Virus record (IMG/VR): IMGVR_UViG_648276649_000002
Direction: 5' to 3' (one strand)
DNA length: 28,032 nt
From: a virus
Taxonomy: Duplodnaviria > Heunggongvirae > Uroviricota > Caudoviricetes
Below, in pieces: positions 1 to 26,812 of this stretch. A model generated the notes under the pieces. The model worked only from the letters and a program-made list of their open reading frames with translations, ran no database searches and was not told where the DNA came from. The translations under genes were made by a program, and so were the position numbers. Numbering within the stretch: position 1 is the stretch's first letter; each line of letters starts with the position of its first letter.

Positions 1-258
1 ATGCAAACCGTTATTTTTGGTCGTCCGGGTTGCCCTTACTGTGTGCGTGCAAAAGATCTGGCTGAGAAATTGAGCAATGAACGCGATGATTTTCAGTATC
101 AGTATGTAGATATTCGTGCGGAAGGGATCACTAAAGAAGATCTACAACAAAAGGCAGGTAAACCCGTAGAAACCGTGCCGCAGATTTTTGTCGATCAGCA
201 ACATATCGGCGGCTATACCGATTTTGCTGCATGGGTGAAAGAAAATCTGGACGCCTGA
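1..258 (+). CDS. grxA: glutaredoxin 1
   Basis: 85-aa ORF with CPYC active-site motif; recognised as E. coli GrxA from the translated sequence. Confidence 0.9.
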   Translation: MQTVIFGRPGCPYCVRAKDLAEKLSNERDDFQYQYVDIRAEGITKEDLQQKAGKPVETVPQIFVDQQHIGGYTDFAAWVKENLDA

Positions 259-267
259 TCGTCTGAC

Positions 268-300
268 AAGCCCTCGCGTTGAGGGCTTTACTGATTTTTT
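268..300. terminator. hairpin (aagccctc / gagggctt) followed by T-run, between convergent grxA and ybjM
   Basis: 8-bp inverted repeat with 5-nt loop, then tactgatttttt on the + strand. Confidence 0.5.
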
Positions 301-665
301 CTGTGCTGTGGTTTAAACAAACTACTGATAAATAAGAAACACAGTGCCCCCAGCGCACACCAGAACACCGCGCTTAGTAACCATGCCAGCTCTTGCCAGA
401 ATGAGCGCGTCGGTGAAAAAAACAGCCGCATAATGAGCATCGAACAGGGTGCCGCCAGCATTGCGCCAAACAGAGGTTTCAGGACTTCTCTACGCTGTGA
501 AAAGAAGCTGGCGACTGCTCCAGGAAGAATGAAAAATAGCAAGCCGATTTCAGGATGCCCGGCAGCCCGAAAAGCGCCTTTCATGTGCGTCGCCAGAAAA
601 AGGCACACCACAATGAAGAGGACAAAACAGCAGATTGCCCCCGCCCAACGTTGTTTATGTTTCAC
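288..665 (-). CDS. ybjM: inner membrane protein YbjM
   Basis: 125-aa hydrophobic ORF; position and size match E. coli ybjM next to grxA. Confidence 0.75.
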   Translation of the reverse strand: MKHKQRWAGAICCFVLFIVVCLFLATHMKGAFRAAGHPEIGLLFFILPGAVASFFSQRREVLKPLFGAMLAAPCSMLIMRLFFSPTRSFWQELAWLLSAVFWCALGALCFLFISSLFKPQHRKNQ

Positions 666-934
666 TCGTTCCTCCTGACACTGCGTCTATCGAACACATT
701 TTTCGCCAGTGTGGCGTTCAGTAAGATAAAGCCGCTTCGCATTCCATGCTAATATAGGCCAACGCAATTCATATAGCCGTTGATACCTAATGTGATTACA
801 CTAGTAAAATATATTGTTACTTTACTATCGTTTAGGTGCGCTGAATGAATCTGCGCCCTGAATTCTGGTAAAAAACATTATCGTAAATTACCATTTCTTT
901 CAACAGCTTACTAGTAAACAAGAAGTTAGCCTCC

Positions 935-2620
935 GTGAATATAAACGTCGCCGAATTGTTAAATGGGAATTACATTCTGTTATTATTTGTGGTCCTCGCG
1001 CTTGGGCTATGTCTCGGAAAGTTACGACTTGGTTCGATCCAACTGGGTAATTCCATTGGCGTTTTAGTCGTATCGCTGTTATTAGGCCAACAACATTTCA
1101 GCATTAACACCGATGCGCTTAATCTTGGCTTTATGCTGTTTATTTTCTGCGTCGGGGTCGAAGCCGGACCGAACTTTTTTTCCATTTTTTTTCGCGATGG
1201 GAAAAATTACCTAATGTTAGCACTGGTGATGGTTGGCAGTGCGCTGGTGATCGCCTTAGGGTTAGGTAAGCTGTTTGGCTGGGATATTGGCCTGACGGCC
1301 GGTATGTTAGCAGGCTCTATGACGTCGACACCGGTTCTGGTCGGTGCTGGCGATACACTGCGTCATTCCGGCATGGAAAGCAGGCAGCTCTCACTGGCAC
1401 TGGATAATCTGAGCCTCGGGTATGCCTTAACCTATTTAATCGGTCTGGTGAGTTTGATTGTTGGTGCGCGTTACTTGCCGAAATTGCAGCATCAGGACTT
1501 ACAGACCAGCGCCCAGCAAATCGCCCGCGAACGTGGCCTGGACACTGATGCCAACCGTAAGGTTTATTTACCGGTGATCCGCGCCTATCGCGTCGGCCCG
1601 GAGCTGGTGGCCTGGACCGACGGCAAAAATCTGCGTGAACTGGGTATTTATCGACAAACCGGCTGCTACATTGAACGTATTCGACGTAACGGGATTCTGG
1701 CAAATCCAGACGGTGATGCCGTGCTACAAATGGGCGATGAAATAGCGTTGGTAGGCTATCCCGACGCCCATGCCCGACTCGATCCCAGCTTCCGTAACGG
1801 TAAAGAAGTTTTCGATCGTGACCTTCTCGACATGCGTATCGTCACTGAAGAAGTGGTCGTTAAAAACCATAACGCTGTAGGTAAACGTCTCGCACAACTG
1901 AAGTTGACCGATCACGGTTGCTTCCTTAACCGCGTCATTCGTAGCCAGATTGAGATGCCGATAGATGACAACGTCGTGCTTAACAAAGGTGACGTTTTAC
2001 AAGTCAGCGGTGATGCCCGTCGCGTAAAAACCATCGCCGATCGCATCGGCTTTATCTCGATTCACAGCCAGGTCACTGACCTGCTGGCATTTTGCGCCTT
2101 CTTTGTTATTGGGCTGATGATCGGGATGATCACCTTCCAGTTCAGCACATTCAGTTTCGGCATGGGGAACGCTGCCGGGTTGTTATTCGCCGGAATTATG
2201 CTGGGCTTTATGCGTGCTAACCACCCGACCTTCGGTTACATTCCGCAAGGTGCATTAAGCATGGTGAAAGAGTTCGGCTTGATGGTGTTTATGGCAGGCG
2301 TTGGTCTGAGCGCCGGTAGCGGTATTAATAACGGCCTGGGCGCGATTGGCGGTCAGATGTTGATTGCCGGATTAATTGTCAGTCTTGTGCCCGTGGTTAT
2401 CTGTTTCTTGTTCGGTGCTTATGTATTGCGAATGAACCGCGCACTGTTGTTCGGCGCAATGATGGGCGCACGCACCTGCGCGCCGGCAATGGAGATCATC
2501 AGTGATACAGCTCGCAGTAACATCCCTGCGCTGGGCTACGCGGGCACCTACGCAATCGCCAACGTCCTGCTGACGCTGGCAGGGACAATCATCGTCATGG
2601 TATGGCCAGGATTAGGATAA
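935..2620 (+). CDS. ybjL: putative AAE-family transporter YbjL
   Basis: 561-aa ORF with membrane domains at both ends and a soluble central region; recognised as YbjL from sequence and synteny. Confidence 0.85.
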
Positions 2621-2722
2621 AACTGAAGTTGCCCTGAAAATGAAATTTTTTTGCACAACCGCAGAACTTTTCCGCAGGGCATCAGTCTTAATTAGTGCCA
2701 CTGCTTTTCTTTGATGTCCCCA

Positions 2723-2766
2723 TTTTGTGGAGCCCATCAACCCCGCCATTTCGGTTCAAGGTTGAT
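2723..2766 (+). terminator. terminator-like hairpin in the host-prophage junction region
   Basis: perfect 10-bp inverted repeat cccatcaacc / ggttgatggg with 17-nt loop, followed by tttttt. Confidence 0.4.
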
Positions 2767-2855
2767 GGGTTTTTTGTTGCCTGAAATTTATGCTTTTTAA
2801 AATCATGATGTTAGACGCACTGTTTTTTAATGATGGCGACAAATTGGCGGCAGAG

Positions 2856-3074
2856 TCAAAGAGAGAGCGCCCCCTGTCCTGATTTCATTGGATGCGGCTG
2901 AACCGGATTTGACTCTTTTGGCGTTGCAATCGAACGAACAAAAGTTTCATGGGTTACAAAAGTATGGCTGCAGTTAATATTCTGGCACTGGTTGTAACGC
3001 TCTTTGGTCAATGAAGATACCTGAAAACTGCTGCGAGTATGGGCGGCACTTCCACACAGTGGGCAAATCATCAT
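2856..3074 (-). CDS. ogr: Ogr/B-family zinc-finger late-gene activator
   Basis: 72-aa product from ATG at 3074 (MMICPLCGSAAHTRSS...CQNINC) with Cys4 pattern like P2 Ogr; GGGAGA 9 nt upstream. Confidence 0.8.
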   Translation of the reverse strand: MMICPLCGSAAHTRSSFQVSSLTKERYNQCQNINCSHTFVTHETFVRSIATPKESNPVQPHPMKSGQGALSL

Positions 3075-3164
3075 TTTTCGAGTTCTCCCCATTTTTGCTA
3101 AATTCACAATAATGATACCGCATTATTCCATTTTGCAAACTTAAAAGTTCTCCATTGCGAAGAA

Positions 3165-4265
3165 TCATTCCATTTCGAAATCATCAATCCTCACTTCAAG
3201 CTCCAGACTGGTCGTAAAACCATTATCCGGGCTGACGGTATGTGTCAGAGTCGTAATGGTCCATTCCGCATCATCTATCGGCTGTTTAAAACCACTGACC
3301 TTCACAGGCATTTCCGTGTAGAGATCTGCCCGCCCTTCTGCCAGTTGTAGAGAAAATGACGCAACGCCGCGTTGCAGGCGTTCCCACTGCATTTTCGCCG
3401 CTCGTTCGGCGTTGCTCCGGTTGGCATAAGTGCGATTAAGTACCAGCACGTTTTCATCCGTACCCACCAGGTAATCGCCCTGCTTCGCTTCTGGCTCTTT
3501 CTTCTGCTTCTTAGTTCTGCGCTTACGCTTCACCGTGGTGCTTTCTTTCTTCGCAGGTTCGCGGGTATGCAACCAGCTGGCAATTACGCCCGTGTAGGCT
3601 CCGCGATCTGCCAGGGTAAAGCGGTGACTGTCGCCGTCCTTACGTGTGATAGTGATCACCGGCAGTGGTTTACCGCTAGCACTTTTACCCTGTCCCTGCC
3701 GGATGAATAACAGATTGCCATTTTTCACCGACGCAATAGCACCGTACTGGCGCGCCAGCCGCATCAGAAAACTGCCGTCACTCTCATTAGTCTGGTCTAT
3801 ATGCTCCACAGGCTTATCCGACAGGTCTTTACCCAGTGCCATCTTCAGCTTGTGACGTACGGCTATTTCCTTCACTACTTCCCCGACGGTGGTCTTGTGC
3901 CACGACTTTTCACGGCGGGTATTCAGCGTTTCACGAAAATCAGCACTTCGCGCCCGAATAGTCAGGCGGTCCGGTGCGCCAGTGTGTTCAATCTCGTCCA
4001 CCGTGAATGCCCCTTTCGGGAAAAGCGGCTGCCCCTTCCAGCCCAGCGCCAGCGTAATGACCGCACCACGGCGCGGCAGCACGATTTTTCCGTCGGCGTC
4101 GTCCAGCTCCAGATCAAGCTGGTCCGCTTCAAAGCCCCGATTGTCCGTCAGCGTCAGACTCATCAGACGGTTATCCAGCACAGTGGTGATATCCCTGCCC
4201 TCAATACTGATACTGAATGCCGGAGTTTTGTTGCCTTTGTTAAGCAGTTCAGAGCTGAAATTCAT
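3165..4265 (-). CDS. D: tail protein D (late control D family)
   Basis: 366-aa ORF in the P2 gpD position; basic Lys/Arg-rich central segment; overlaps U stop. Confidence 0.85.
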   Translation of the reverse strand: MNFSSELLNKGNKTPAFSISIEGRDITTVLDNRLMSLTLTDNRGFEADQLDLELDDADGKIVLPRRGAVITLALGWKGQPLFPKGAFTVDEIEHTGAPDRLTIRARSADFRETLNTRREKSWHKTTVGEVVKEIAVRHKLKMALGKDLSDKPVEHIDQTNESDGSFLMRLARQYGAIASVKNGNLLFIRQGQGKSASGKPLPVITITRKDGDSHRFTLADRGAYTGVIASWLHTREPAKKESTTVKRKRRTKKQKKEPEAKQGDYLVGTDENVLVLNRTYANRSNAERAAKMQWERLQRGVASFSLQLAEGRADLYTEMPVKVSGFKQPIDDAEWTITTLTHTVSPDNGFTTSLELEVRIDDFEME

Positions 4266-4747
4266 GACAGCAGCCCTCCCACCGTTTTACTGATATCGCT
4301 TAAGGCAGATGTTGCCATGTCCTGCAGATTATTCAGCTGCGCACTGAGATCACCAAACATATCGGACAGGGATTCATCCACCCGTTTGAGCGACAGGGTG
4401 AACTCAATCCGGCGCGGCATACCGTCGCGGAAAAACTCCGTTTTGGTCTGATTCAGTCCCTCAATCACATACATGCCGTAAATCGTGCCGCTGCCTTCAA
4501 TCAGGGGCCATGCTTTCCCCTGCTCTGCCATCTGCTCCAGTGCCAGCAATGACAGCCTGCCGCCTGTTATCTCCGGCATAAGAACACCAGAAAGCGTCAG
4601 CATGTCGTTGTCCGGTCCCAGAAACTGCGTGGATGGACGACGATTTACCCGACTGTTAGCCGCATGTCGCCAGCTGCGCTGATACTGCAGTTCCTGATAC
4701 GGCACGGTGCGCAGCATAAACACGTACAATCCCAGCACCATCATCAT
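4262..4747 (-). CDS. U: tail protein U
   Basis: 161-aa ORF between T and D, as in P2 FETUD. Confidence 0.8.
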   Translation of the reverse strand: MMMVLGLYVFMLRTVPYQELQYQRSWRHAANSRVNRRPSTQFLGPDNDMLTLSGVLMPEITGGRLSLLALEQMAEQGKAWPLIEGSGTIYGMYVIEGLNQTKTEFFRDGMPRRIEFTLSLKRVDESLSDMFGDLSAQLNNLQDMATSALSDISKTVGGLLS

Positions 4748-6300
4748 GCGTCGTATCCCCCCTGATCGCTGTAGTTACTCCTGGCTTTTGCCTTCAGCCT
4801 GCGTTCACGTTCATCAAGCTGGCGGGCCACCTCCCGCGCAATATCCTGCGCACTTTGTCCTGGCTGCGTCTGAATGATGATCTGCGTCGGTGCCTCAATC
4901 CGTTGAACGGGCGGCACAGTGGCTGCACGACTCACCATCGCTTCGCCGCCTTTCGCGGGAAGTGCCAAAGGATGTAACGGTGGAAGCTCTGTAGGCGCGG
5001 CAGCAACGCCCATCATTTCGGCAACAACCGCAGCCAGTGCAGCGGTATTTCTCCGGCTGGTCACGTTTGCCGGGCCGTTGACAATTTCCGGCCCGTTTTC
5101 ACCGACGATGCCAAACTGCCCGCGCGGGATATAGCCGCCGCTGTCATACATCCCCGCAAAGCCATATCCCCATGACGGAAAACCACCCGATGGCATCATC
5201 ACTTTACCGTCTGCATTCACCGTCGCAGGTTGCTGACGCGTCACGCTTTCCGGCAGTTTCGCCTTTGCGGCCTCTTTACTGACAATGCCGAGCTTCTCCA
5301 GCAACCAGGAAACGCCGGATTTCAGTGAGTCCAGCGGATGCATGACCATATTCAGCCCTTCCGCCAGTGCCTCCCCGAATCGCCGCCCCATTGCCGCTGC
5401 ACTCTGCAGTTCGGCAGAGGTCGACTTAACGGGCGTCAGCAGATCAGTAAACCAGCCCCACAGCGCCTGCACTTTGTCGCCAATCCACTGAAACACAGGC
5501 TTAAGTGGTTCGAATGCAGCACTGATGGGACCTGCCGCCGCTTTGAATCCTTCCACCACGCCACCGAGAAATGCGGTGATGGGTTGCCAGTATTTCCAGA
5601 CAACCAGCGCCACGCCCGCCAGTGCAGTAACCACAAGACCTATCGGACTGAGCAGAGCACCTAACAGACCAGATACGGCATACAGAGCAACGCGCAGCAT
5701 CGCCAGCGGACCGGATGCCAGCACTCGCAGCACCGCGCCTGCGGCGGTCAGTCCACCGCGCAGTACCGCCAGTGGATTCATAAACATCACAGCAACCGCA
5801 CGTAAACCGGATAATCCAGACCGCAATAGTGCAACCGGCGCACCTGCTACAGTTTTCAGGACATTTCCCGTCAGTGATGCCGTACGGCGCAAAGACGACA
5901 ACGGCGCAGTAAGTAAACCCGCTGCGTTACCCGATGAAGCAAGCCCGCGTCGCAGCACTGCCAGTGGAGCGCCAGCCAGCCAGGACAACGCGCTGCTGGT
6001 TCGTGTTACTGCTGCCGTAACGGAAGGTAACGTTTTGATGCCCAGCACAGAGAATCCCAGACGGATGACTGCCAGCGGCCCCAGCACTGCAGCCAGCGCC
6101 ACAGCCAGGGTGCCGAGTCCTACGGTAACCGCAGCCACAATAGCGGCTACTTTCATCAGTGTGCCCGTCAGTTCCGGGTTAGCTTCCACCCAGCGACGCA
6201 ACGCTCCCGTAACGCTTTTCACCGTGTACAGAATATCCATCAGCGGCATAACGTCAGTAACGGATGGCGGCCAGTGAAAAATGGTGGCGATATCAGCCAC
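4744..6300 (-). CDS. T: tail tape measure protein, shortened; no independent ATG, frame continuous with E'
   Basis: 518-aa Ala/Leu/Gly-rich ORF with hydrophobic repeats and a C-terminal MYDSGGYIPRGQFGIVGENGPEI-type segment; only about 1.56 kb lies between E and U. Confidence 0.7.
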   Translation of the reverse strand: MADIATIFHWPPSVTDVMPLMDILYTVKSVTGALRRWVEANPELTGTLMKVAAIVAAVTVGLGTLAVALAAVLGPLAVIRLGFSVLGIKTLPSVTAAVTRTSSALSWLAGAPLAVLRRGLASSGNAAGLLTAPLSSLRRTASLTGNVLKTVAGAPVALLRSGLSGLRAVAVMFMNPLAVLRGGLTAAGAVLRVLASGPLAMLRVALYAVSGLLGALLSPIGLVVTALAGVALVVWKYWQPITAFLGGVVEGFKAAAGPISAAFEPLKPVFQWIGDKVQALWGWFTDLLTPVKSTSAELQSAAAMGRRFGEALAEGLNMVMHPLDSLKSGVSWLLEKLGIVSKEAAKAKLPESVTRQQPATVNADGKVMMPSGGFPSWGYGFAGMYDSGGYIPRGQFGIVGENGPEIVNGPANVTSRRNTAALAAVVAEMMGVAAAPTELPPLHPLALPAKGGEAMVSRAATVPPVQRIEAPTQIIIQTQPGQSAQDIAREVARQLDERERRLKAKARSNYSDQGGYDA

Positions 6301-6314
6301 CAGATCGTCAACCG

Positions 6315-6617
6315 TCAGGCTGTCGGTAAACCGGCAAGCACCGACTTCTTCAACAAAAAAGTGACAACCTCAACCGACATGGCAGTGAGATCTGCCGGGT
6401 CCATCTCTGCAATTTCCTGTGCAGTCAGTGCCGGACTGGAGATGCGGGGGATCACGGTCATCATCGCGTTCACATCCATATCCATAATGGCCTGCAGGCG
6501 TGTACCGCGCAGCGCACCGGACTGCGGTTTACGCAGCACAATTTCGGTGATTTCTGTTTTACCTCGCTTGATGGGGGTATCCAGTTGAATAGTCTTTTCA
6601 GTCTGCTTATCGCTCAT
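6315..6617 (-). CDS. E: tail assembly chaperone E
   Basis: 100-aa ORF directly upstream of the tape measure; contains the slippery heptamer near its 3' end. Confidence 0.8.
   Translation of the reverse strand: MSDKQTEKTIQLDTPIKRGKTEITEIVLRKPQSGALRGTRLQAIMDMDVNAMMTVIPRISSPALTAQEIAEMDPADLTAMSVEVVTFLLKKSVLAGLPTA
6354..6360 (-). other. programmed -1 frameshift slippery heptamer T TTT TTG (E to E')
   Basis: on the - strand reads ACT TTT TTG in the E frame; the -1 frame is open from here into the T ORF. Confidence 0.7.
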
Positions 6618-6671
6618 TTTGCTGTCCTGTAAATTGGGTTCTGGCGCGGTATCCCGCGCCGTTCAGATACA

Positions 6672-7187
6672 TCAGAGGCCGAGGGCGTTGCGGTGCGCTT
6701 CCATCAGGTCCACACCGTCCACAATTTCCACCATGTTGATAAGGTCCACTTCATAGAGCACCTCACCATTTATAGTCAGCTTCGCGTAGCTGTTGGTACT
6801 GGTCACTTTGGTGGTGTTGCTTTCGCCCGTCTTCCACTCTCCGGAATCCACTTCTTTGTGACGTCCACGCACCACAAGCTCCACAGCCTGCACTTCCCCG
6901 GTATCGTCACGCTGGATAGAGCCGGTAAAGCGCAGCTGGATGCCATCCACCGTAGCTTTGCCCATCTGTTTAAACAGCAGCAGTTCAGTACCACCAATGG
7001 AAAATTCTGTGTCCAGCGCACTGTCATCAAGCCCCAGATCCACATCCACTGCACCCGGCATTCCGCCGCCGCGATACTTCTCATATTTGCGGGTGAATTT
7101 CGGCAGCGTCAGCGACTCAACGATCCCCTGCCAGTTGTTCCCGTCATTAAACAGGTTCAGGTGTTTTAATTTGCGTGGTAAAGCCAT
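6672..7187 (-). CDS. FII: tail tube protein FII
   Basis: 171-aa ORF, size and position of P2 gpFII. Confidence 0.85.
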   Translation of the reverse strand: MALPRKLKHLNLFNDGNNWQGIVESLTLPKFTRKYEKYRGGGMPGAVDVDLGLDDSALDTEFSIGGTELLLFKQMGKATVDGIQLRFTGSIQRDDTGEVQAVELVVRGRHKEVDSGEWKTGESNTTKVTSTNSYAKLTINGEVLYEVDLINMVEIVDGVDLMEAHRNALGL

Positions 7188-7196
7188 GTTGTCCCC

Positions 7197-8036
7197 TTAC
7201 GCGCTGACCTGGCTGGAGAAATTCACCAGGTACTGATCGGTGATGCGCTGACGCAGCATCAGGTTTTCAAGTGGCGGCACTGGCGTGTAGTCGTAATCGA
7301 TGGTGAGTTTTCCGGCTTTCAGGGTGTCTTTGTCGTTCACCGACTCGTCCAGCCAGCAATCACCACCAATGAGATACCCCTGACTTACCAGGCTGCGCAT
7401 TTTGGCGCGGATACCCTCGATAATGTCGCGCGCCAGCGACGGGTTCAGCGGTTTGTCCACCGCCCACATGTGCGCTTCTGCCATTGTGTCCGTCAGCACC
7501 TGCGCCGTGCGAGTGTAGTTTTCGAAAGCAAAAAGCGGATCATCGCTCAGACAGCGGGAACCCCAGAAGCGGAAACCATCCTTGCGCACAAGCGTGGTGA
7601 CGTCGTTCTGGTTAAGCAGTCCCGCATCGGTTGCCGGGTCCTGCAGATCCCAGAACACATCAGCAGAAATTCCGGTGACACCGTTCACGCCCACGTTGGA
7701 CAGGCTTTTGTGCCATCCGGTCTGCTCGTCAATTTTGGCGCGCAGACCAAGCGCTCGGGCGGTGGCATATGCCGTTGCTTCGGCATTCAGCACCGTGTCC
7801 CAGCCAGTAAAGTCAGGCCAGATCAGCATCCCTTCGCGCTGGCTAAAGTTTTCACGGTAAGTGATCGCCTCCTGTACCGTCTTGCAGCCATACGCTGACA
7901 GGTAAGCAAATCCACGCAGGCTTTGCGCCACGCTCAGCAACTCAGTAGCTACCGCCTTGGTGTCGTGGCCTGGCACGCCGAGAATGCGCGGTTTAACGCC
8001 GAGCTGTGACTGGGCAGATAATCCAGTTGGTTTCAA
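7197..8036 (-). pseudogene. FI: tail sheath protein FI, 5'-truncated; retains about the C-terminal 280 of about 396 aa
   Basis: strong match to P2-type sheath from [11 protein letters not shown] onward to [12 protein letters not shown]; no N-terminal third and no ATG (the track start is TTG). Confidence 0.8.
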
Positions 8037-8148
8037 GGTCGCCCGTTTTCACCCGGCAAAGCCAGTTATCCCGGTCCACCTCGGTGACTACACCAGTGCG
8101 GATCAGGTTGGTGATAAGGCGCATGATTTCAGTCAGTTGTGCATTCAT
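7993..8148 (-). pseudogene. V: baseplate spike protein V, N-terminal fragment of about 45 aa then out-of-frame tail
   Basis: ATG at 8148; [36 protein letters not shown] resembles gpV N-terminus; runs into the FI remnant. Confidence 0.65.
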
Positions 8149-8159
8149 GAGAGCGATCC

Positions 8160-8188
8160 TTGCACAACCGGGTAGAGTGATGTAATAC
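8160..8188 (+). promoter_or_regulatory. candidate sigma70 promoter for the antisense moron ORF
   Basis: TTGCAC, 17-nt spacer, TAATAC on the + strand about 55 nt upstream of ATG 8244. Confidence 0.35.
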
Positions 8189-8196
8189 AGAGCGTA

Positions 8197-8214
8197 TGTA
8201 TGGAGAACCACACA
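8197..8214. promoter_or_regulatory. TGT-N12-ACA dyad, candidate Ogr-dependent late promoter element (pV)
   Basis: TGTatggagaaccacACA, centred about 57 nt upstream of the V' start codon; shares gaACCACACAAA with the dyad upstream of P. Confidence 0.4.
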
Positions 8215-8243
8215 AAAGAGAAACAATTTCTAAGGTATTTAAG

Positions 8244-9110
8244 ATGACACAAATCGCAATTTATGGATTTAATTTCACTAAAAAAATCACATTTGACGGT
8301 GGTGAGTTAACTCCTATTTTCAGTTCATGGAGTGAGTTAAAAAAAAATGGCTGGGATAATGATAGGTACATCCTCACTGGTTTTTTCAAACCAAACTCGA
8401 ATAACTACGCCACTCAACAGCAGCTTATTTTTGATTTACAAGCAGTTCTTAGTTTTATTGAACAAAAAAATGTAATCATTTCAGGAGAACTTGAAAATGA
8501 TGAAACCCCTTTCAATTTCAAACCATCTCTACCCAAAAAGCTTGACAAAAAAAGAGATAAGGGTGCGGGCATTATCATCATGGAAGATTATTTTGCACCA
8601 AACAGCCGAGAAAATTTTATTTGCTTAGCCATGGAAAAACTAAATAGTAAAGCCATGCTAAAACAAGATGCCTTTAGAACATCATTTTTTAAATCAATGC
8701 TAGCTTTCCGCGACTCAATAAATTATATCGACGTCAGATATTATTTATTATTCTCGGCACTAGAAGCACTTTGCAGATTTATTAAAAATGACTACTCCCC
8801 TGCCAAAACACCACAAATAATCACTCAGGTTTTAAAAGAATATGGTTTTAATGTCGAAAAAACAGGACATACATTAGCTCAAAGAAACATTATGCATTAC
8901 TGCAAACTCCGTCACTCGCTGTTCCACAATGGTAAATACATTGCCTATCTTGATGAAAAAAACTCAGATGGCAAAATTGAAATTCAAGATTACTCATCAA
9001 ATTTGAATTTACTGGTGCCACTTGTACTAATGAAATTCATAGGATTTGATGACAATTATATAAACTGGGACTCATGGATTGATAGGAATCCATTTATCAG
9101 TAAAAAGTAA
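8244..9110 (+). CDS. hypothetical cargo protein, possible HEPN-like (Rx4H) abortive-infection candidate
   Basis: 288-aa ORF from ATG 8244 with AAGG upstream; strongly AT-rich, antisense to the late operon; C-terminal YCKLRHSLFHNGK motif. Confidence 0.7.
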   Translation: MTQIAIYGFNFTKKITFDGGELTPIFSSWSELKKNGWDNDRYILTGFFKPNSNNYATQQQLIFDLQAVLSFIEQKNVIISGELENDETPFNFKPSLPKKLDKKRDKGAGIIIMEDYFAPNSRENFICLAMEKLNSKAMLKQDAFRTSFFKSMLAFRDSINYIDVRYYLLFSALEALCRFIKNDYSPAKTPQIITQVLKEYGFNVEKTGHTLAQRNIMHYCKLRHSLFHNGKYIAYLDEKNSDGKIEIQDYSSNLNLLVPLVLMKFIGFDDNYINWDSWIDRNPFISKK

Positions 9111-9136
9111 ACTAAATTTTATAAATGTGGTTTTAT

Positions 9137-9583
9137 TTATCTCTGTAACCAATTTAGCAAAGCATCCTGAATGACAGTTTCCACATCATCATTTACGCCT
9201 AGGAGACGACGCTCTGCATAACGGACCTCCGGTCCTCTTCGACTGATGCGATCACGCAGGCCGTAGTGATGAACGCGGGCAATGCGCTGCACCTTACCTT
9301 CAAACTGCACGCTGGCAGAATCGGCGCTGGCGGCAGTTTTCAGGTATTTTGTGGTGCGCAGCTTTGTAAACATCTGACGTTTGATGCGCCCCTTTTTGCT
9401 GCGTGCTGTTACCCGTCGCGGCTCATAACTGCTGCCATCTGGATTGCGCTGCATCCTGATGTTCTGCTGCTGTGTCCGGCGCAGTTCCTGCGCCAGCTGG
9501 CGCATCATGCGGCTTCTTGCGGCTGGCTCCAGATTCGCCAGCAAGGCACTCAGCCAGTCGTCCACCTTCTGCAATTCAGCCAC
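9137..9583 (-). CDS. S: tail completion protein S
   Basis: 148-aa ORF in the gpS position downstream of R. Confidence 0.8.
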   Translation of the reverse strand: MAELQKVDDWLSALLANLEPAARSRMMRQLAQELRRTQQQNIRMQRNPDGSSYEPRRVTARSKKGRIKRQMFTKLRTTKYLKTAASADSASVQFEGKVQRIARVHHYGLRDRISRRGPEVRYAERRLLGVNDDVETVIQDALLNWLQR

Positions 9584-10007
9584 GTTTCACCGTCCACATT
9601 TCTTCAGGTTCATCAGGTTCCGCTATAGCTTCAACGCTCGACACACTGCCGTCAGTGCTGACCAGCACACGCTCCGTCAGTTGCAGGTTCAGGCTGATAT
9701 CACAGACATCGTTGCGCAGAATATCCACCTCAAAGGTGAATAGTTTTTCCCGTAACGCCGGGTTATTGATGGCATCGGGCTGGTTATCCCGCAGCCACAG
9801 CAAAACCGGGGCCATCAGCAGATTCTGGTCGCCGCTGAAATCCTCAATCACTGCGTTCAGCGTGTAACGGTACTCCCACGACATGGAGCTGGTCCCCGTG
9901 GCAACCAGCGAACCGTTATCCACAAACAGATGCAGTTTGTCCGGGTTATTGCGGACATAAGGCACTGCTTTATTAAGGGCGTGGCGCAGGGATTGTGGTT
10001 TGTTCAC
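9576..10007 (-). CDS. R: tail completion protein R
   Basis: likely GTG start at 10007 with AGGAG 8 nt upstream; gpR-like size and position. Confidence 0.75.
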   Translation of the reverse strand: MNKPQSLRHALNKAVPYVRNNPDKLHLFVDNGSLVATGTSSMSWEYRYTLNAVIEDFSGDQNLLMAPVLLWLRDNQPDAINNPALREKLFTFEVDILRNDVCDISLNLQLTERVLVSTDGSVSSVEAIAEPDEPEEMWTVKRG

Positions 10008-10260
10008 TGTTTCGCTCCTGACACGCAATAATCATGTCCACTTTGTCTGCACAGACCGCCCAGGCGGCCTCCGTTTCATCCAGCAACGCGTTCAGCTCAC
10101 CGTTAGTGCGCGGCGCTGTCTGATCCAGCCGACACGGCGTCACTCGCGGACAACCACTGACGGTAAGCTGCACCTCCGGTGAGTGCCGGACGTTCCCGCA
10201 GCCGGATAATGTCAGCAGGCAAAGGAGTATCAGCCCAGCGGCGTAAATCCTCATTCTCAC
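9973..10260 (-). CDS. lysC: o-spanin (Rz1-like outer-membrane lipoprotein LysC)
   Basis: starts inside lysB in another frame; signal peptide with lipobox LTLSGC; Pro-rich C-terminus. Confidence 0.7.
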   Translation of the reverse strand: MRMRIYAAGLILLCLLTLSGCGNVRHSPEVQLTVSGCPRVTPCRLDQTAPRTNGELNALLDETEAAWAVCADKVDMIIACQERNSEQTTIPAPRP

Positions 10261-10531
10261 GTTTCAGTTCCTCAATCCGGCGTTGTCGTTGTCTCAGCAG
10301 CGCGCTGGTCTGTTCTGCGTCGGCATAGAGCCGCGCCTGCTCCCGGTTATTGGTTTCAGTCAGAATGGACAGGCTGATAAGCTGGCTGTTGCTCTTTGCC
10401 AGTGCCTGGCTTTTGCTCTGCAGCTCGTCCGCCTGCGTGCTGATGGTCCGGCTGGCATCAGCCAGCCGCCACGTCTGCCAGCCCAGCGCCGCCAGTAATA
10501 ACGCCAGCATAACCAGCAGCAACCGGTTCAT
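10103..10531 (-). CDS. lysB: i-spanin (Rz-like LysB)
   Basis: N-terminal transmembrane helix followed by coiled-coil-like charged region; overlapped by lysC. Confidence 0.75.
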   Translation of the reverse strand: MNRLLLVMLALLLAALGWQTWRLADASRTISTQADELQSKSQALAKSNSQLISLSILTETNNREQARLYADAEQTSALLRQRQRRIEELKRENEDLRRWADTPLPADIIRLRERPALTGGAAYRQWLSASDAVSAGSDSAAH

Positions 10532-10905
10532 GCTGCTACCTGTTGCGCCATCTGATTACGGGTGATCCAGAAGGCAATAACGGTCAGTAGATAAAAGACC
10601 AGGGTAATAGCCCACCCCGTCCAGACGAGACTTACGACAATCAGCAATCGCATCACCCAGCTGATAAATACGTTTTCTTTTCGGGTAATGGTCTTCAGCA
10701 AAGATACCCTCAACTCCTGCCAGAGCGAGCCATTCTTAATTAACGCAGCCAGTGCTACCGGAATTGCCGCCCATGTCAGTAAACAGGCTACCCAAACGCC
10801 GGACGCTGCCAGTACCGAAAAAATCCCCTGCGGATACACCATTGCTGCGATTAACAGCGCCATCCATAACATCAGAAACAGTCCGCTGATTAATTTCTTT
10901 TTCAT
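10528..10905 (-). CDS. lysA: lysis regulatory membrane protein LysA
   Basis: ATG at 10905 with GGGAG upstream; multi-TM small protein after the endolysin. Confidence 0.7.
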   Translation of the reverse strand: MKKKLISGLFLMLWMALLIAAMVYPQGIFSVLAASGVWVACLLTWAAIPVALAALIKNGSLWQELRVSLLKTITRKENVFISWVMRLLIVVSLVWTGWAITLVFYLLTVIAFWITRNQMAQQVAA

Positions 10906-10906
10906 T

Positions 10907-11419
10907 TCAGTTTGCTCCCTGTAAGCACCAGGCCATCTCCCGCGCACGGCGGTTATCCAGCCCCTGATTAAACACACCTTTCACATACACCCAGCGCGGC
11001 AACTGTCGGCACGCATCCGCCCAGCGCCGCTGATTGAGCAATTTCACCAGCGTGGAGCTGCAGGCATTGCCTGTCCCCACGTTGAAGGCAAATGACACCA
11101 CCGCGTCATACACTTTCTGCGGTGGCTGTTGCTTCACACACCTTTCCAGTGACCGCTCCACACGCAGCACGTTGGAGATAAGCCCTTCTGCTGCCTGTCG
11201 TTCCGTAATGGTTTTGCCGGGAATGACGTCCGACGTATTACCAATGCCGTCAGTCCATACACCCGCGCTGCACTGATACGGCTGCAGACGACAGCCTTCG
11301 TAATCGGCAATCAGTTTCAGTCCTTCCACGGAGGTGTGAAGCTGCTGAAAACCCGGCAGCGTGGCAGCAATAGCCAGCACGGCCCCGACAAGGCAGCGTT
11401 TAACGATTGATGGATTCAT
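10907..11419 (-). CDS. K: endolysin, phage lysozyme with N-terminal signal-anchor-like segment
   Basis: 170-aa ORF with hydrophobic N-terminus and lysozyme-like EG...D...T region; P2 gpK position. Confidence 0.85.
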   Translation of the reverse strand: MNPSIVKRCLVGAVLAIAATLPGFQQLHTSVEGLKLIADYEGCRLQPYQCSAGVWTDGIGNTSDVIPGKTITERQAAEGLISNVLRVERSLERCVKQQPPQKVYDAVVSFAFNVGTGNACSSTLVKLLNQRRWADACRQLPRWVYVKGVFNQGLDNRRAREMAWCLQGAN

Positions 11420-15022: not shown

Positions 15023-15040
15023 TGTACCGACAACCACACA
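15023..15040. promoter_or_regulatory. TGT-N12-ACA dyad, candidate Ogr-dependent late promoter element in the O/P divergent region
   Basis: TGTaccgacaaccacACA centred about 56 nt upstream of the P start codon. Confidence 0.4.
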
Positions 15041-15086
15041 AACCGCAGGCGGGGAAAGCCTTCATTCAAGGCTGTAGGTTTGTGCC

Positions 15087-16853
15087 ATGAACACCACACT
15101 GACACCCGCAGATCTCGATCCCCGTCGGCAGGCCATGCTGCTGTACTTTCAGGGATACCGCGTCGCCCGCATTGCTGAAATGCTGGGCGAGAAAGTTGCA
15201 ACCGTTCACAGCTGGAAAAAACGCGACAAGTGGGGTGACTATGGGCCGCTGGATCAGATGCAGCTCACCACCGCCGCACGCTACTGCCAGCTCATTATGA
15301 AGGAGCACAAAGAAGGGAAAGATTTCAAAGAGATTGACCTGCTGGCGCGCCAGTCGGAGCGCCACGCGCGGATCGGCAAGTTTAACAATGGCGGCAACGA
15401 AGCCGACTTAAACCCTAACGTCGCCAACCGCAACAAAGGCCCACGCCGTCAGCCGGAAAAGAATGTTTTCACCGATGAGCAGATTGAGAAGCTGGAAGAA
15501 ATCTTCCATTCCTCCATGTTCAACTACCAGCGCCACTGGTGGGAAGCCGGAAAAACCAACCGCATCCGCAACCTGCTGAAGTCACGCCAGATCGGCGCGA
15601 CCTTTTACTTTGCCCGTGAAGCCCTGATTGACGCTCTGCTTACCGGACGTAACCAGATTTTCCTTTCTGCCAGTAAGGCACAGGCCCACGTCTTCAAACA
15701 GTACATCATCGACTTTGCCAAAGAAGTGGAGGTGGAGCTGAAAGGCGATCCGATGGTGCTTCCCAACGGGGCCACACTGTATTTCCTCGGAACCAATGCC
15801 CGCACGGCCCAGAGTTACCACGGCAACCTGTATCTGGATGAATATTTCTGGATACCGAAATTCCAGGAGCTGCGCAAAGTGGCTTCCGGTATGGCTATTC
15901 ACAAAAAATGGCGACAAACCTATTTTTCCACGCCATCCAGCCTGACCCACAGTGCTTATCCGTTCTGGTCCGGTGCGCTGTTCAACCGTGGACGCAACAA
16001 AGCTGACAAGGTGGACATCGACCTGTCCCACAGCAATCTGGCCCCCGGCCTGCTGTGCGCAGACGGGCAATACCGCCAGATAGTCACCGTGGAAGATGCG
16101 GTGCGCGGCGGCTGTAACCTGTTCGACCTCGACCAGCTACGCATGGAGTACAGCCCGGACGAATACCAGAACCTGCTGATGTGCGAGTTCGTGGACGATC
16201 TCGCGTCCGTGTTCCCGCTCAGCGAACTGCAGGCGTGCATGGTGGACAGTTGGGAAGTCTGGACCGACTTTCATGCACTGGCCCTGCGCCCGTTTGGCTG
16301 GCGCGAGGTGTGGATCGGTTATGACCCGGCAAAAGGTACGCAGAACGGCGACAGCGCCGGATGCGTGGTGGTGGCACCGCCAGCCGTGCCAGGCGGTAAG
16401 TTTCGCATTCTTGAGCGTCACCAGTGGCGCGGGATGGACTTCCGCGCCCAGGCGGACGCCATCAAAAAACTGACCGAACAGTACAACGTGACCTATATCG
16501 GCATCGACTCGACAGGTGTCGGTCACGGGGTTTACGAGAACGTGAAAGCGTTTTTTCCAGCCGTCCGGGAGTTTGTCTACAACCCCAACGTTAAAAACGC
16601 CCTGGTACTCAAGGCCTACGACATTATCAGCCACCGCCGTCTGGAGTTTGACGCCGGACACACCGACATAGCGCAGTCATTTATGGCAATCCGTCGCGCC
16701 ACCACCGCCAGCGGCAACCGCCCGACCTATGAAGCCAGCCGCAGCGAAGAAGCCAGCCACGCCGATCTGGCCTGGGCAACGATGCACGCTCTGTTTAACG
16801 AACCGCTGCAGGGCGAATCCGCCAATACCAGCAATATTGTGGAGATTTTTTGA
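15087..16853 (+). CDS. P: terminase large (ATPase) subunit P
   Basis: 588-aa ORF; N-terminus MNTTLTPADLDPRRQAMLLY is gpP-like. Confidence 0.9.
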   Translation: MNTTLTPADLDPRRQAMLLYFQGYRVARIAEMLGEKVATVHSWKKRDKWGDYGPLDQMQLTTAARYCQLIMKEHKEGKDFKEIDLLARQSERHARIGKFNNGGNEADLNPNVANRNKGPRRQPEKNVFTDEQIEKLEEIFHSSMFNYQRHWWEAGKTNRIRNLLKSRQIGATFYFAREALIDALLTGRNQIFLSASKAQAHVFKQYIIDFAKEVEVELKGDPMVLPNGATLYFLGTNARTAQSYHGNLYLDEYFWIPKFQELRKVASGMAIHKKWRQTYFSTPSSLTHSAYPFWSGALFNRGRNKADKVDIDLSHSNLAPGLLCADGQYRQIVTVEDAVRGGCNLFDLDQLRMEYSPDEYQNLLMCEFVDDLASVFPLSELQACMVDSWEVWTDFHALALRPFGWREVWIGYDPAKGTQNGDSAGCVVVAPPAVPGGKFRILERHQWRGMDFRAQADAIKKLTEQYNVTYIGIDSTGVGHGVYENVKAFFPAVREFVYNPNVKNALVLKAYDIISHRRLEFDAGHTDIAQSFMAIRRATTASGNRPTYEASRSEEASHADLAWATMHALFNEPLQGESANTSNIVEIF

Positions 16854-17923: not shown

Positions 17924-18928
17924 TTATTCTTCTGAATCATCATAAACATCCATTCCTTCGGTCTGATTTCTAATATAAGAAGCCCCCATAGAATTAGCAA
18001 TCGCAGTCCGAATTAACCCTACATGAGTGAAAAACACCCCTAACCTAGCACGCTTTAACTCAGACTCATCATCATAGTCATCTTCATTACTTATAATTCT
18101 TCTAACCATTGCCTTATCTTCGTCAATAGCCGAAGGTAGCCCACTCTTTAAAGCGTCAATACACTCACCTACAGTTATAATTTTATTTTTAATTAATTCA
18201 GAAAGCAAATCATCATAATTTTCATCATCAGATTTATTATCAGGTGGTAATTCACTTGCAGCTATCATTTTCAGCAATTCTACGTCAAGCATAGTTCCTC
18301 TATCTAGTCTGCTTGTCTCAACATACCCCTCACGCTCTGATAACACTCTTTCAAATTCGAAATCAACGACTTCAAGCAAAGCAGATACTCTATTAATTGC
18401 TCGCCTAAGAGGAAGTGGAACACTTTGCTCTTTTTTGTATTGCAGTTTATGAGATGCTGCAGCCCAAATATGCTGAGAAAGCGTTCGTATTTGCACCTCC
18501 ACTTTCATATTTTTAAAATCACTAAAGGATGGAACTCTTAGCCATTCTTCTGGAGGTTGTATTACATAATGATGAGATTGGTACCCAAATCTATCCTCAT
18601 CCAGTTCATCAAGTTTATTCTCTTGCTTCAAAATAATGAAATGTTCTTTCAGACAAGATATAACCTTTTCAACATCTCGCTTAAATAGCATTATTAATCG
18701 GATTCCAACATAATCATCCAAGTCAACTATTGACTCAATCTTTAGAGGTTTTCGGTTATCCTTATTAATAATAGAACTTAATGTTTTGACACGGCTTTCA
18801 ATTGGAACCCCTAAAGACAATTTATTCTCCGACAAAATAACATCAATTTGCTCAACCATAACTCGTCTGAACAATTCCGCAACTGAGCCGTAAATTGAAT
18901 GCTGTTCTTTTAATTCTTCGTCTGTCAT
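17924..18928 (-). CDS. RelA/SpoT-like nucleotidyltransferase (toxSAS-like) with uncharacterised acidic C-terminal domain
   Basis: motifs RVKTLSSIINK, DYVGIRLIM, GYQSHH and EVQIRTLSQHIWAAASHKLQYK in the N-terminal half; AT-rich; RBS-like AGGT upstream. Confidence 0.8.
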   Translation of the reverse strand: MTDEELKEQHSIYGSVAELFRRVMVEQIDVILSENKLSLGVPIESRVKTLSSIINKDNRKPLKIESIVDLDDYVGIRLIMLFKRDVEKVISCLKEHFIILKQENKLDELDEDRFGYQSHHYVIQPPEEWLRVPSFSDFKNMKVEVQIRTLSQHIWAAASHKLQYKKEQSVPLPLRRAINRVSALLEVVDFEFERVLSEREGYVETSRLDRGTMLDVELLKMIAASELPPDNKSDDENYDDLLSELIKNKIITVGECIDALKSGLPSAIDEDKAMVRRIISNEDDYDDESELKRARLGVFFTHVGLIRTAIANSMGASYIRNQTEGMDVYDDSEE

Positions 18929-20556: not shown

Positions 20557-22971
20557 TTAATACAGGTTCCGCCACTTATCATCTTCCTTCAGACGCTGGT
20601 TCCGATAGAAGATACGCAGGCCTGCTCCTGACGGAATACTGCCGCCGCGAAGGAGCAAATCGACTTCTTTCTCGCTGCCATCAAATCCCCTGGACTTCAG
20701 TTCATAGACGAGCTGCTGTCGCTGATGGTCTGTAATTCGCTGTTTGTAGTCTTTACGCCGTTTCGGTTTCACCTGGCGTAACCTTGCAGCCAGTTCCCGG
20801 CGCTCTTTTTTGCTCATACTGTGCAGGTAATCGTGCAACTCTTTGTCATTCATACGGGTAATATCCGTTCTGGAGTCCCCATCAGCTGATTTGTCTTTCC
20901 CTTGTTGGTTCAAATTTTCAGCAAGGGGACAGTTATTGCCACGAGTCCAAGGGGCGCAAGCGCCCTGGTCGGCTGCCGCCTCCTGAACGTCAACGGCCTT
21001 ACGAACCATTTTCCACTTCACTGCATGAGTGCAGATCTTGCCCTCTGCAATGGGTGACCAGATGCCATAAATACGAATACCGTGATCACCATAGGCGGTC
21101 GGCTCTTCGTTGATTTCATAAGCGGTTCTGATCAAGTGATATTTGCGGGGAACCAACACGCCGCCCTGCTTCATAATGTAGGTGGCAAAACAGCCAGCAT
21201 CAGCAGCAGCCAGAATGGCATCAAGACGCGGATCATCCAGTACCGGCGCACCTGCTTTTTTGTCACCCTGCTGCCTTGCCGCCTGACCAGCCAGCAATCG
21301 CAGTTCACGGTAAGCCTGACGCCCCGGAATGCCAAAGAAGCGGAATTGCTGAACACGATGCAGAGACGCCCAGGCATTAACGTATTCAGCGTTATCACGC
21401 AGGGATTTACCCGTTTCCTTGCTGATCTCGCCAGCCAGACCACGCCCGTCAATGTTCTTACTGATGTATTTCGCGATGTAGCTTGTCGGCGTTCCTTTGC
21501 GCGGGTTAATCAGCTCAGACTTAAAGCGTGGCCCCGTGTTATTGCCCAGTTCCTCGCGGTCTTCACGGATGGCAAACTTACGCAGTAATGCAGTGATGGC
21601 GCGGCGGTCTTTTTTACGCATGAAGCACATGAGATGCCAGTGCACAGTACCGTCATGATGCGGCTCAGCCACCCGCACGCCATACCACCGCAATCCGGCT
21701 TTGTGCATCGCCTTACGAAATGCAGCAAACATGCCGACCAGATAATCACTGCTTTGTCTTACCGTCGCATTTGTCCAGGTCGGGTTTGGTCTGCCGTTAT
21801 TGAGCGTGGAATGGAAACGTGACGGACAGGTGATGGTGTAGAAAACGGCGCAGTCACCGCGCATTTCCGCGATAAGCTCCAGACCTTTAACGCAGGCCAT
21901 CATCTCATTGCGGCGATGTGCCGGGTTGCTGCTGCTGGCGTTTACCACATCTTCCATATCCAGCGTGTCTCCGTCTTCGTTCACCAGTTCATGAGAACGG
22001 AAAAACTCCAGCGACTTGCGGCGCTGCTCACGTTTATGCGTCACTGCTTCATAGCTGACATAGGGAGATGCTTTTTTGCTGACCAGACAGACAGCACGCA
22101 ACTGCTCTTCCCGCCATTCGCAACGCATCTTCCACAATTTTCGATACCACCAGTCGGCGCAAAGCATACGTGCCAGCGAACCCGGTATGAGTTCATAGGG
22201 CACAGGTTTGCGGCGGTTTCTTTTCCGACGAAGTTTCTCAAACGCAGGCGGGATAACATCCAGACGCAGGGTTTCCGCAGCCACCTTTTCCCATGTCTTG
22301 CGGATTTCTTCTGGCTTAACGTCATCGGTGGCGTACAAATCACCACAAGCGGCCTCAAGACACATGCTCATATGCGCTGCTACCAGGGTGGACAGGCGTT
22401 TCACCTGATCCTGGCTCATTTCAGGCAGGATCAGCAGCCCCTCCAGCCCTTGATGGCTTGCCATAAAACGGAAAGAAACAGATAGCTGACTGTCACGTAC
22501 ACAATCCAGTCGCTCCAGACATGGCTTAATCGTCTCACGCAAATAGCGGGAATAAGCCTTTGGCCTGCCCAGGCTGCTGAAGTATTCGATACGTTGCATC
22601 AGCGGCTTGCTGATATGAGAAGGCTGGGCGCTGACATCTGCCAGAATGACCATGTCCGGGTTAAAACGCTGCTGCTCATGCGCCAGCTTTGCCCGGCTAA
22701 TGAGCTTATCCTGCTCCATTTCGCGCTGGACAGGATCACGGGATTCATTAAAGAAATAACGCTCCCAGACCTGCTCACTCAGTGCCTCGCGGCGCAGTTG
22801 TTCCTGCTCGTTATCGGCAGCGTACAGAGTGATCAGGTTTGAAAGTGCAGACTCCGGCGCAACTTCCGCCGGATCCAGATAAGGGTTAATGGCCTTTTTC
22901 GGGCCGTTCCATGAAAATGCTGCGGCAGCCTCGTTAAAGCCGCTAGAGTTGCTCATATCGTCATGACTCAT
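20557..22971 (-). CDS. A: replication initiation protein A (rolling-circle nickase)
   Basis: 804-aa ORF, P2 gpA-like size and position; overlaps the dam stop. Confidence 0.9.
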
Positions 22972-23825
22972 ACACGCACCTCGTACACAGCAGAACTATC
23001 CACGCCACGCGAAGGATCAAATCCCATCCAGCAGCGCGACCCGGAAACAGCAATGATTTCTGTTGCAGATTTACTCTCGCCAGCTGACACGCCGATGCTG
23101 CGTTTTGCCTTGATGTAGTGGTGAGTGAAATTGCGATACAGCGAACGGATCAGGGATGTGTCACTGTTAGAAACAATGACCGGATGACCTTCTGATGATC
23201 GATATTCAAGAACGGATGCCAGGTGATACTGGTCATCTTCAGTGAAGCCGTCAGTGTGATAACCGGAAAACGTGCCGTCATACGGCGGATCGCAATACAC
23301 CACATCCCCCGCCTTCAACATCGCCAGCGTTTCATCAAAGCTGGCGCAGATAAACGTTGCCCGCTGGGCTTTTTCTGCAAATGCGCGAATTTCTTTTTCA
23401 GGGAAATACGGATTTTTATAATTACCGTAGGGAATGTTGAAATGCCCGCTCTTGTTATAGCGACATAACCCACGGTAACCATGACGATTGAGATACAGGA
23501 AATATATCGCTTTCATGAAATCAGTAATTTCAGTTGAGTAATTAAACTCCTGCCTTATGTTGTAATAAGCTAGGTCACTGTTTGCTTCCTCAAACAAAGT
23601 TCTGGTCCGCGATATAAACGCCTCGCAATCAGCGGCAATCTTTTTATAGAGGTTGATTAAATCAGGATTAATATCCGCAACCAGATAGCTGGGGTAATCC
23701 GTCTCCATCATCACAGCACAGGAACCCGCGAAAGGTTCAACCAGTCGCGGGCCAGCAGGTAGGTATTTTTTCAGTTCGGACATAATTGCGGTTTTATTTC
23801 CCGCCCATTTCAGGATGGTGCTCAT
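22968..23825 (-). CDS. dam: DNA adenine methyltransferase (Dam-like, GATC family)
   Basis: ATG 23825; [12 protein letters not shown]-terminus, FAGSCAV SAM-binding motif and DPPY catalytic motif. Confidence 0.9.
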
Positions 23826-24049
23826 ACAGCACCTCCGTTGTAATGTTTGCCTTTCAGCTCTGCGATTTCCTGACAGGTAATGCAAAGCTGCACTCCAGGA
23901 ATGGCACGGCGGCGTGCTGGCGGAATTGGTGCTTCACATTCAATGCAAAGCACGCGAGACACGCCCGGTGTTTTGGCACGGGCAGCACGGATATGGCGCT
24001 GGCGTTCTTCTTCAACGCGCTGCTGTACGAGATCCATTGCATCAGCCAT
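23822..24049 (-). CDS. TraR/DksA-family C4 zinc-finger protein
   Basis: 75-aa ORF with CIECEAPIP...CITCQ four-Cys motif. Confidence 0.75.
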   Translation of the reverse strand: MADAMDLVQQRVEEERQRHIRAARAKTPGVSRVLCIECEAPIPPARRRAIPGVQLCITCQEIAELKGKHYNGGAV

Positions 24050-26605: not shown

Positions 26606-26620
26606 TACCGGGAGGAAACT

Positions 26621-26812
26621 ATGCTTGGTAAGGTATTTTTTGTGGTTTTGTCATGTTCTTTGTTATTAAACCCACTAACTACCTATGCTAGAAATTATCC
26701 CTGCTCAGGGAAAAAGGGAGGTGTTTCTCACTGTACCTCAGATGGCAAATTCGTTTGCAATGATGGAACTATTAGTAAATCCAAAAAAATCTGTACTAAA
26801 AACTCACGATAA
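26621..26812 (+). CDS. small Cys-rich secreted protein (cargo)
   Basis: 63-aa ORF with GGGAGG RBS, N-terminal signal peptide, four Cys, Lys-rich, AT-rich. Confidence 0.55.

Follow-up and report, generated by a model that had tools for sequence, protein, structure and literature searches.

A 1,633-bp deletion places the distal part of tape-measure gene T in the E' frame of a defective P2-like prophage of Escherichia coli

Gene E, its slip site and the open −1 frame

The window analysed here, a stretch of 28,032 nucleotides filed as IMG/VR record IMGVR_UViG_648276649_000002, is E. coli chromosome. Its positions 1–2900 hold grxA, ybjM and ybjL, a segment that was matched in 5,420 of 5,426 complete E. 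coli genomes and that is 100% identical to the corresponding segment of strain C2. From about position 2850 to its end, the window is filled by a P2-like prophage, integrated next to ybjL and collinear with Escherichia phage Cartapus (Peduoviridae, Elveevirus). The prophage genes follow one another in the order ogr, D, U, T, E'/E, FII and FI, then lysis, head, terminase and portal genes; beyond the portal genes, the prophage continues with cos, replication genes, the repressor and the integrase. In the tail region, ogr, gene D (late control D/hub protein; 3165–4265, minus strand), gene U (tail protein in the FETUD operon context; 4262–4747, minus strand) and gene FII (tail tube; 6672–7187, minus strand) are intact. 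As set out below, other tail genes are not, and the element next to ybjL is a defective P2-like prophage of the Peduoviridae, Elveevirus/Cartapus-like.

Gene E, encoding the tail assembly chaperone (6315–6617, minus strand), is also intact. It starts with an ATG at 6617, its stop ends at 6315, and its 100-aa product matches Pfam Phage_TAC_7 (PF10109, E=1e-18) and is identical to the E protein of Cartapus. The gene is placed between FII (7187–6672) and the remnant of T, as expected of a P2-type chaperone, and the region in which it lies (window 6240–8021) shows zero nucleotide mismatches to E. coli C2. Near its 3' end, gene E contains the slippery heptamer T TTT TTG (6360–6354, minus strand), the −1 programmed frameshift site for E+E', which is the same as the heptamer of P2. 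The heptamer is in the correct phase (X XXY YYZ), the zero-frame codons being ACT TTT TTG.

Shortly before the slip site, the −1 frame is blocked by a TGA at 6372–6370 (minus strand); from there it is open for 541 codons, up to the next stop at 4746–4744. The first possible start in this frame is a GTG at 6300, which gives rise to a 518-aa ORF. We searched for Shine-Dalgarno-like sequences upstream of this GTG and of two nearby ATG codons at 6249 and 6240, and found none at any of the three; independent initiation of the T remnant at these codons was therefore dropped. As no credible start is left for the T remnant, a free tape measure is not expected. An earlier note on this DNA had described an intact heptamer at 6360–6354, a −1 frame running open from the slip site into the 518-aa ORF with the nearest upstream stop at 6370–6372, and a tape measure that has no ATG start and only a GTG at 6300 without a good ribosome-binding site, and it was accurate in all three respects.

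The 518-aa ORF is composed of two parts of different origin. Its first residues belong to the retained part of E', VEEVGACRFTDSLTVDDLVADIATIFHWPPSVTDVM(PL), which extends from the slip site to a junction (6248–6354, minus strand) and includes the GTG at 6300, so that the start taken by the ORF caller is an E' codon. As far as the junction, this part is identical to the E' of C2 and of Cartapus, and residues 1–24 of the ORF match positions 1–24 of the 37 positions of Pfam Phage_P2_GpE (PF06528). A complete E' would comprise about 55 codons, with a Phage_P2_GpE domain and a stop of its own overlapping the T start; in the window, its final 19 codons (TEVLEWRYKAIQRSGANDE) are missing, as is the stop. 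The remainder of the ORF is the distal part of gene T (4744–6239, minus strand), that is, residues 528–1025 of 1,025 and the stop codon, now in the E' (−1) frame. Residues 21–518 of the ORF correspond to residues 528–1025 of the C2 T protein, all 498 positions aligning with one substitution, and only 498 of the 518 residues are thus T-derived. While the ORF shows clear homology to the C-terminal half of T, both a T-type start overlapping an E' stop and the full length typical of the lineage are absent, the T ATG and residues 1–527 being deleted. No Pfam match to PhageMin_Tail (PF10145) was obtained with the window ORF; intact C2 T has this domain at residues 246–457 (E=1.6e-18). Because the ORF is made up of genuine E' and T coding sequence, the 541-codon open frame is, judged by these alignments, real coding sequence and not a chance effect.

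The deletion junction and the intact relatives

The ancestor-like state of the locus is preserved in E. coli C2 (NZ_CP010117.1), where this prophage likewise sits at the ybjL site, with 99.9–100% identity either side of the junction. Window positions 1–6247 correspond to positions 1–6247 of the C2 locus with 6 mismatches in 6,247 bp, and window positions 6240–8021 correspond to 7873–9654 of the C2 locus with 0 mismatches in 1,782 bp. In the C2 annotation, a T gene of 1,025 aa stands beside a separate 39-codon GpE-family ORF. The C2 region is undeleted: E' has its own stop, and the T ATG overlaps this stop by 8 nt and lies in the frame of E. Cartapus and P2 share this layout, with the same 8-nt overlap of T ATG and E' stop and with T in the zero frame of E.

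Megablast of window positions 4200–7300 against phage genomes returned two pieces that together cover the entire query, the matched span being 4,734 bp in the phages versus 3,101 bp in the window. Local BLAST against Cartapus gave two collinear pieces with an 8-base overlap on the window side and a separation of 1,633 bp on the phage side. In a three-way alignment, the window tracks Cartapus E' up to ...GACGTTATGCCGCTGA and Cartapus T from GCCGCTGATGGATATT... on. The octamer GCCGCTGA is found at both ancestral sites, its copies in the C2 locus lying at 6240–6247 and 7873–7880; a single copy of this 8-bp direct repeat remains in the window, at 6240–6247 (minus strand), and marks the junction at which 1,633 bp are missing. 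At the protein level, ancestral E' reads ...PPSVTDVMPL/TEVLEWRYKAIQRSGANDE followed by its stop, ancestral T reads ...GETLRQPL/MDILYTVKS..., and the fused protein reads ...PPSVTDVMPL/MDILYTVKS.... Gone with the deletion are the final 19 codons of E' with its stop, the start codon of T and T residues 1–527, among them the whole PhageMin_Tail domain.

The length of the deletion also explains the frame. T normally lies in the zero frame of E, and 1,633 equals 3 x 544 + 1 (3n+1); the distal T codons are therefore found in the −1 frame of E, which is the E' frame. An in-frame result is to be expected a priori in one case out of three, which suffices to account for the open frame, and the in-frame outcome neither supports nor contradicts selection. 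By a simple calculation, junctional homology of at least 8 bp at random breakpoints has a chance of about 1.4e-4. The 8-bp repeat at the endpoints points to a slipped-strand or other microhomology-mediated deletion, and we suggest that a single event would have taken place between the two GCCGCTGA repeats, one in the E' frame and the other at T codons 526–528, most likely by replication slippage or another form of microhomology-mediated illegitimate recombination. Given flanks that are 99.9–100% identical to the intact C2 prophage, the deletion is recent by sequence comparison. Taken together, these observations make it highly probable that a 1,633-bp deletion joined distal T in frame to E' in a decaying prophage, and none of the results speaks against such a deletion.

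The FETUD operon of P2 resembles that of the window in its gene order (FI-FII-E-(E')-T-U-D-ogr), in its identical slippery heptamer and heptamer phase, and in an E' frame without a start of its own; P2 E' is homologous to the E' of the window (…DDLxADxAxIFHWPPS…). In P2, however, E+E' amounts to 142 aa and has its own stop, and T, at 815 aa, starts with an ATG that overlaps this stop by 8 nt in the zero frame of E, whereas the window has lost the E' stop together with the T start and the first 527 codons of T, and its E' frame runs on into what is left of T. The P2 layout invoked in the earlier note (a short E' extension and a separately starting T of about 815 aa) is thus correct, as is its proposal, put forward as the simplest reading, that a second internal deletion has joined E' to distal T, which is borne out by the 1,633 bp absent relative to C2 and by the 8-bp repeat at their ends. 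Its estimate that the tape measure is about 300 aa short holds only when P2 T (815 aa) is the reference; measured against the 1,025 aa of its own lineage, 527 residues are missing.

Further decay of the prophage and distribution of the junction

Separately from the 1,633-bp deletion, another 6,416 bp that are present in C2 have been deleted, with the junction near window position 8021; at this junction (8015–8021), V codon 44 is fused out of frame to about codon 117 of FI. Lost with it were V after codon 44, W, J, I, the fibre and fibre-assembly genes and the invertase, as well as the late-promoter dyad upstream of FI and sheath codons 1–116. Of the sheath gene FI, the C-terminal 274 of 390 codons remain (7197–8021, minus strand), the N-terminus and the dyad being deleted. 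With a separate 6.4-kb deletion having removed V through the sheath N-terminus, the word "second" in the earlier proposal was apt. This second, 6,416-bp deletion shows ongoing decay of the prophage. It took away the baseplate genes, the fibre genes and the N-terminus of the sheath, from which we infer that the window prophage cannot make tails.

By contrast, Cartapus (Elveevirus, NC_070909), with 94–98% nucleotide identity to the window in the tail genes, and the C2 prophage, with 99.9–100% identity in these genes, the same integration site and an identical E, both retain a T of 1,025 aa, an E' of full length and an entire baseplate/fibre/sheath module; compared with the C2 prophage, 1,633 bp and 6,416 bp are missing from the window. 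Decaying cryptic or defective E. coli prophages likewise show several internal deletions in structural genes, with short homologies or none at the endpoints and with flanking host genes unchanged, and do not differ in any essential way from the window prophage. The sole oddity of the latter is that a deletion restores an open frame through a programmed frameshift site.

A 27-mer spanning the 1,633-bp deletion junction was absent from GTDB species representatives and from metagenome contigs, and, of 5,426 complete E. coli genomes, not one contained a 601-bp probe across the junction as a contiguous stretch. The intact E-T stretch, on the other hand, was matched in 1,095 of these 5,426 genomes, at least 80% of the stretch being covered in 956 of the 1,095. 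In IMG/VR, the junction 27-mer occurred in only one contig, which is 100% identical to window positions 2686–11195; this contig probably represents the same assembly as the window and hence no independent occurrence.

The single match to the probe at 82% coverage came from E. coli AREA_497. This strain was ruled out as a carrier of the same junction, its deletion being a different one that affects T-U-D. AREA_497 has the same type of prophage at the same site, with its T-U-D deletion arisen independently.

An assembly or sequencing artefact in a strain that really has an intact E'/T region would produce a similar picture, and the window does seem to stem from a draft assembly, the only other occurrence of the junction being the identical 15-kb IMG/VR contig, which comes from an isolate genome and is not independent. 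However, the 8 bp of homology at the junction are far below assembler k-mer sizes, such that collapse of a repeat is implausible; since 8 bp cannot collapse an assembly, an unfaithful assembly is unlikely. Moreover, the three-way alignment shows the breakpoints to be free of long internal repeats on their flanks, and the 6,416-bp deletion, an unrelated event in this prophage, is in line with real decay. We consider an artefact very improbable and retain a genuine deletion as the explanation.

The earlier note had alternatively raised the possibility that this lineage encodes a G-GT-like fusion of chaperone and tape measure, in which the extension runs into a short tape measure by design. Lambda gpG/gpGT resembles the window arrangement in that a chaperone and its −1 frameshift extension are encoded just upstream of the tape-measure gene (lambda gpH), the chaperone part binding the tape measure and the frameshift extension binding the tube protein (PMC5009743). 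In lambda, G and GT are made at a ratio of about 30:1, and P2-like phages frameshift with an efficiency 2- to 3-fold that of lambda (PMC5009743). In P2, gpE and gpE+E' are produced by a −1 frameshift at TTTTTTG (Christie et al. 2002, as referred to in PMC3091744), and, going by the statements on this point in PMC3091744 and PMC5009743, P2 is the only phage with a P2-type E/E+E' pair in which frameshifting was demonstrated experimentally. Lambda GT is, however, never fused to H, and the fusion in the window is the product of a deletion, not a conserved design.

The sole support for a natural fusion is that the −1 frame is uninterrupted and that the 518-aa ORF has no good start of its own. Against it, the close relatives, including the isolated phages Cartapus, 4LV2017 and 500465-1 as well as the 99.9–100% identical C2 prophage, without exception end E' with a stop of its own and start a T of 1,025 aa at a separate ATG, and T is separate in P2 and in about 956 E. 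coli genomes as well; wherever the region was inspected closely, T begins in a different frame, with its ATG overlapping the E' stop. Functional relatives with the same short, in-frame arrangement were sought, and none was found among 48 phage records, the 5,426 complete E. coli genomes, GTDB species representatives and metagenome contigs. In addition, the fused ORF lacks the conserved C-terminus of E' and the PhageMin_Tail domain, the junction is unique to the window sequence, and the prophage is devoid of baseplate and fibre genes. We therefore reject a chaperone-tape-measure fusion native to the lineage as exceedingly improbable. The comparison with P2 E, E' and T for which the earlier note had called (same heptamer, homologous E', separate T) likewise agrees with a deletion fusion. 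What the window records is ordinary decay of a defective prophage, and not a new gene arrangement.

Predicted products and their significance

Upstream of V, at a distance of about 50 nt from its ATG (8148), a TGT-N12-ACA dyad remains at 8197–8214 and is present at the same position in C2 and Cartapus. The window contains 9 occurrences of this pattern versus 7.6 expected, which is not above chance, and the dyad at 8197–8214 gains weight only from its positional agreement with C2 and Cartapus. The architecture of P2 late promoters is known, and, by reference to it, the dyad is a probable Ogr-dependent late-promoter element, now located upstream of the whole tail-gene remnant. Transcription of the remnant from a V-type late promoter may therefore persist.

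Provided that transcription of the operon takes place, E (100 aa) would still be made by normal translation. Ribosomes slipping by −1 at T TTT TTG would be predicted to give a 624-aa chimera consisting of E(1–88), then truncated E' (38 aa), then T(528–1025), and no free tape measure would be made. By analogy with lambda, such a chimera would be without the conserved C-terminal part of the extension and without the N-terminal half of the ruler. As the baseplate, the fibres and the sheath N-terminus have been lost separately, the chimera could not support tail assembly here, and it would appear to be an accidental by-product of decay without a function in this process.

The chimera might nevertheless have been kept for a different use, as a dominant-negative inhibitor of tail assembly in superinfecting P2-like phages or as a membrane-active protein. 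In keeping with such a use, E' and distal T share one reading frame, both the slip site and gene E have been preserved, the operon remnant still has a late-promoter-like dyad upstream of it, ogr is intact, and the tape-measure-binding chaperone domain is retained, by analogy with lambda gpG (PMC5009743). On the other hand, the 99.9–100% identical flanks bespeak a very recent event, leaving no time for selection to show, and the fusion is seen in one genome only, its in-frame outcome being expected in 1 of 3 cases by chance; we thus regard retention for a useful purpose as very unlikely. It seems similarly doubtful, to the point of being a long shot, that the frameshift chimera, upon activation by Ogr or by delta of satellite P4, would interfere with the building of tails by P2-like phages, whether superinfecting or co-resident, or cause membrane damage, the latter via the hydrophobic T repeats. 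If interference did take place, an accidental deletion product would have gained an exclusion-like activity.

With the fusion regarded as a deletion product, the 518-aa "tape measure" call is better annotated as a pseudogene remnant, namely an E'::T deletion fusion without the N-terminus, and the window prophage as defective and tail-less. The comparison to be made in such cases is with the closest lineage and not with the type phage P2, T comprising 1,025 aa here versus 815 aa in P2. Beyond correct annotation, the finding has little significance; the case shows how a microhomology-mediated deletion can open a reading frame through a programmed frameshift site and thereby mimic a novel gene architecture.

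A deletion at V/FI and the remaining, probable late-promoter dyad

Relative to the near-isogenic prophage at the ybjL site of E. coli C2 (NZ_CP010117.1; locus L006), the first deletion of this prophage removed 6,416 bp, with its junction at about 8015-8021 (window 7993-8226). Gone with this segment are W, J and I, all of V beyond codon 44, the genes for the tail fibre, fibre assembly and the invertase, the promoter region of FI, which encodes the sheath, and sheath codons 1-116. The remaining N-terminus of V reads out of frame into FI, ending at a stop at 7993.

The V ATG is preceded, at a distance of about 50 nt, by a TGT-N12-ACA dyad (8197-8214; TGTGTGGTTCTCCATACA on the minus strand), and dyads are found at the matching position in both C2 and Cartapus, an Escherichia phage (Elveevirus, NC_070909) collinear with the prophage. 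It resembles two further dyads, at 15023-15040 and 15081-15098, between the capsid-scaffold and terminase genes, and is probably an Ogr-dependent late-promoter element. The fused tail remnant, in which a separate 1,633-bp deletion joined E' to the distal part of the tape-measure gene T, now lies downstream of this dyad.

Variable cargo segments

One variable slot, with V on one side and the S/R tail-completion genes on the other, holds a 304-aa ORF (8196-9110, plus strand) that is divergent from V, AT-rich compared with its surroundings, as judged on the sequence near its start, and without a match in Pfam or PADLOC; both C2 and Cartapus carry other genes here. In a second slot, flanked by the portal gene and cos, lies the gene for a 334-aa protein (17924-18928, minus strand) that contains a RelA_SpoT domain (Pfam E=7.6e-20) and matches the PADLOC candidate defence family PDC-S33 (E=1.8e-16). 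A small alarmone synthetase, or the product of a toxSAS-type defence gene, is a possible identity for this protein. In Cartapus, the portal-cos slot contains a DUF4145 gene.

From the CI-type repressor to the integrase (window 26211-26941), the prophage is about 2.2 kb shorter than C2 (L006 33298-36251), which bears three additional cargo genes in this segment (two for hypothetical proteins and a third for a protein with an ASCH domain). The integrase shares about 95% identity with that of C2, but only about 70% with that of Cartapus.

Damage in related prophages

A prophage of this type at the ybjL site of E. coli AREA_497 (NZ_CP123329.1; locus L005, 6363-8102) has decayed independently: the annotation gives its T as frameshifted and incomplete, U is absent and D is truncated. 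The window retains intact ORFs, both on the minus strand, for the replication endonuclease gpA (804 aa; 20557-22971) and the Dam methylase (22968-23885). Their counterparts in C2 (L006 27883-31162) carry annotations as pseudogenes with frameshifts, in a prophage that is intact elsewhere. Thus, a different module is damaged in each copy, unless the frameshifts in C2 reflect sequencing errors.
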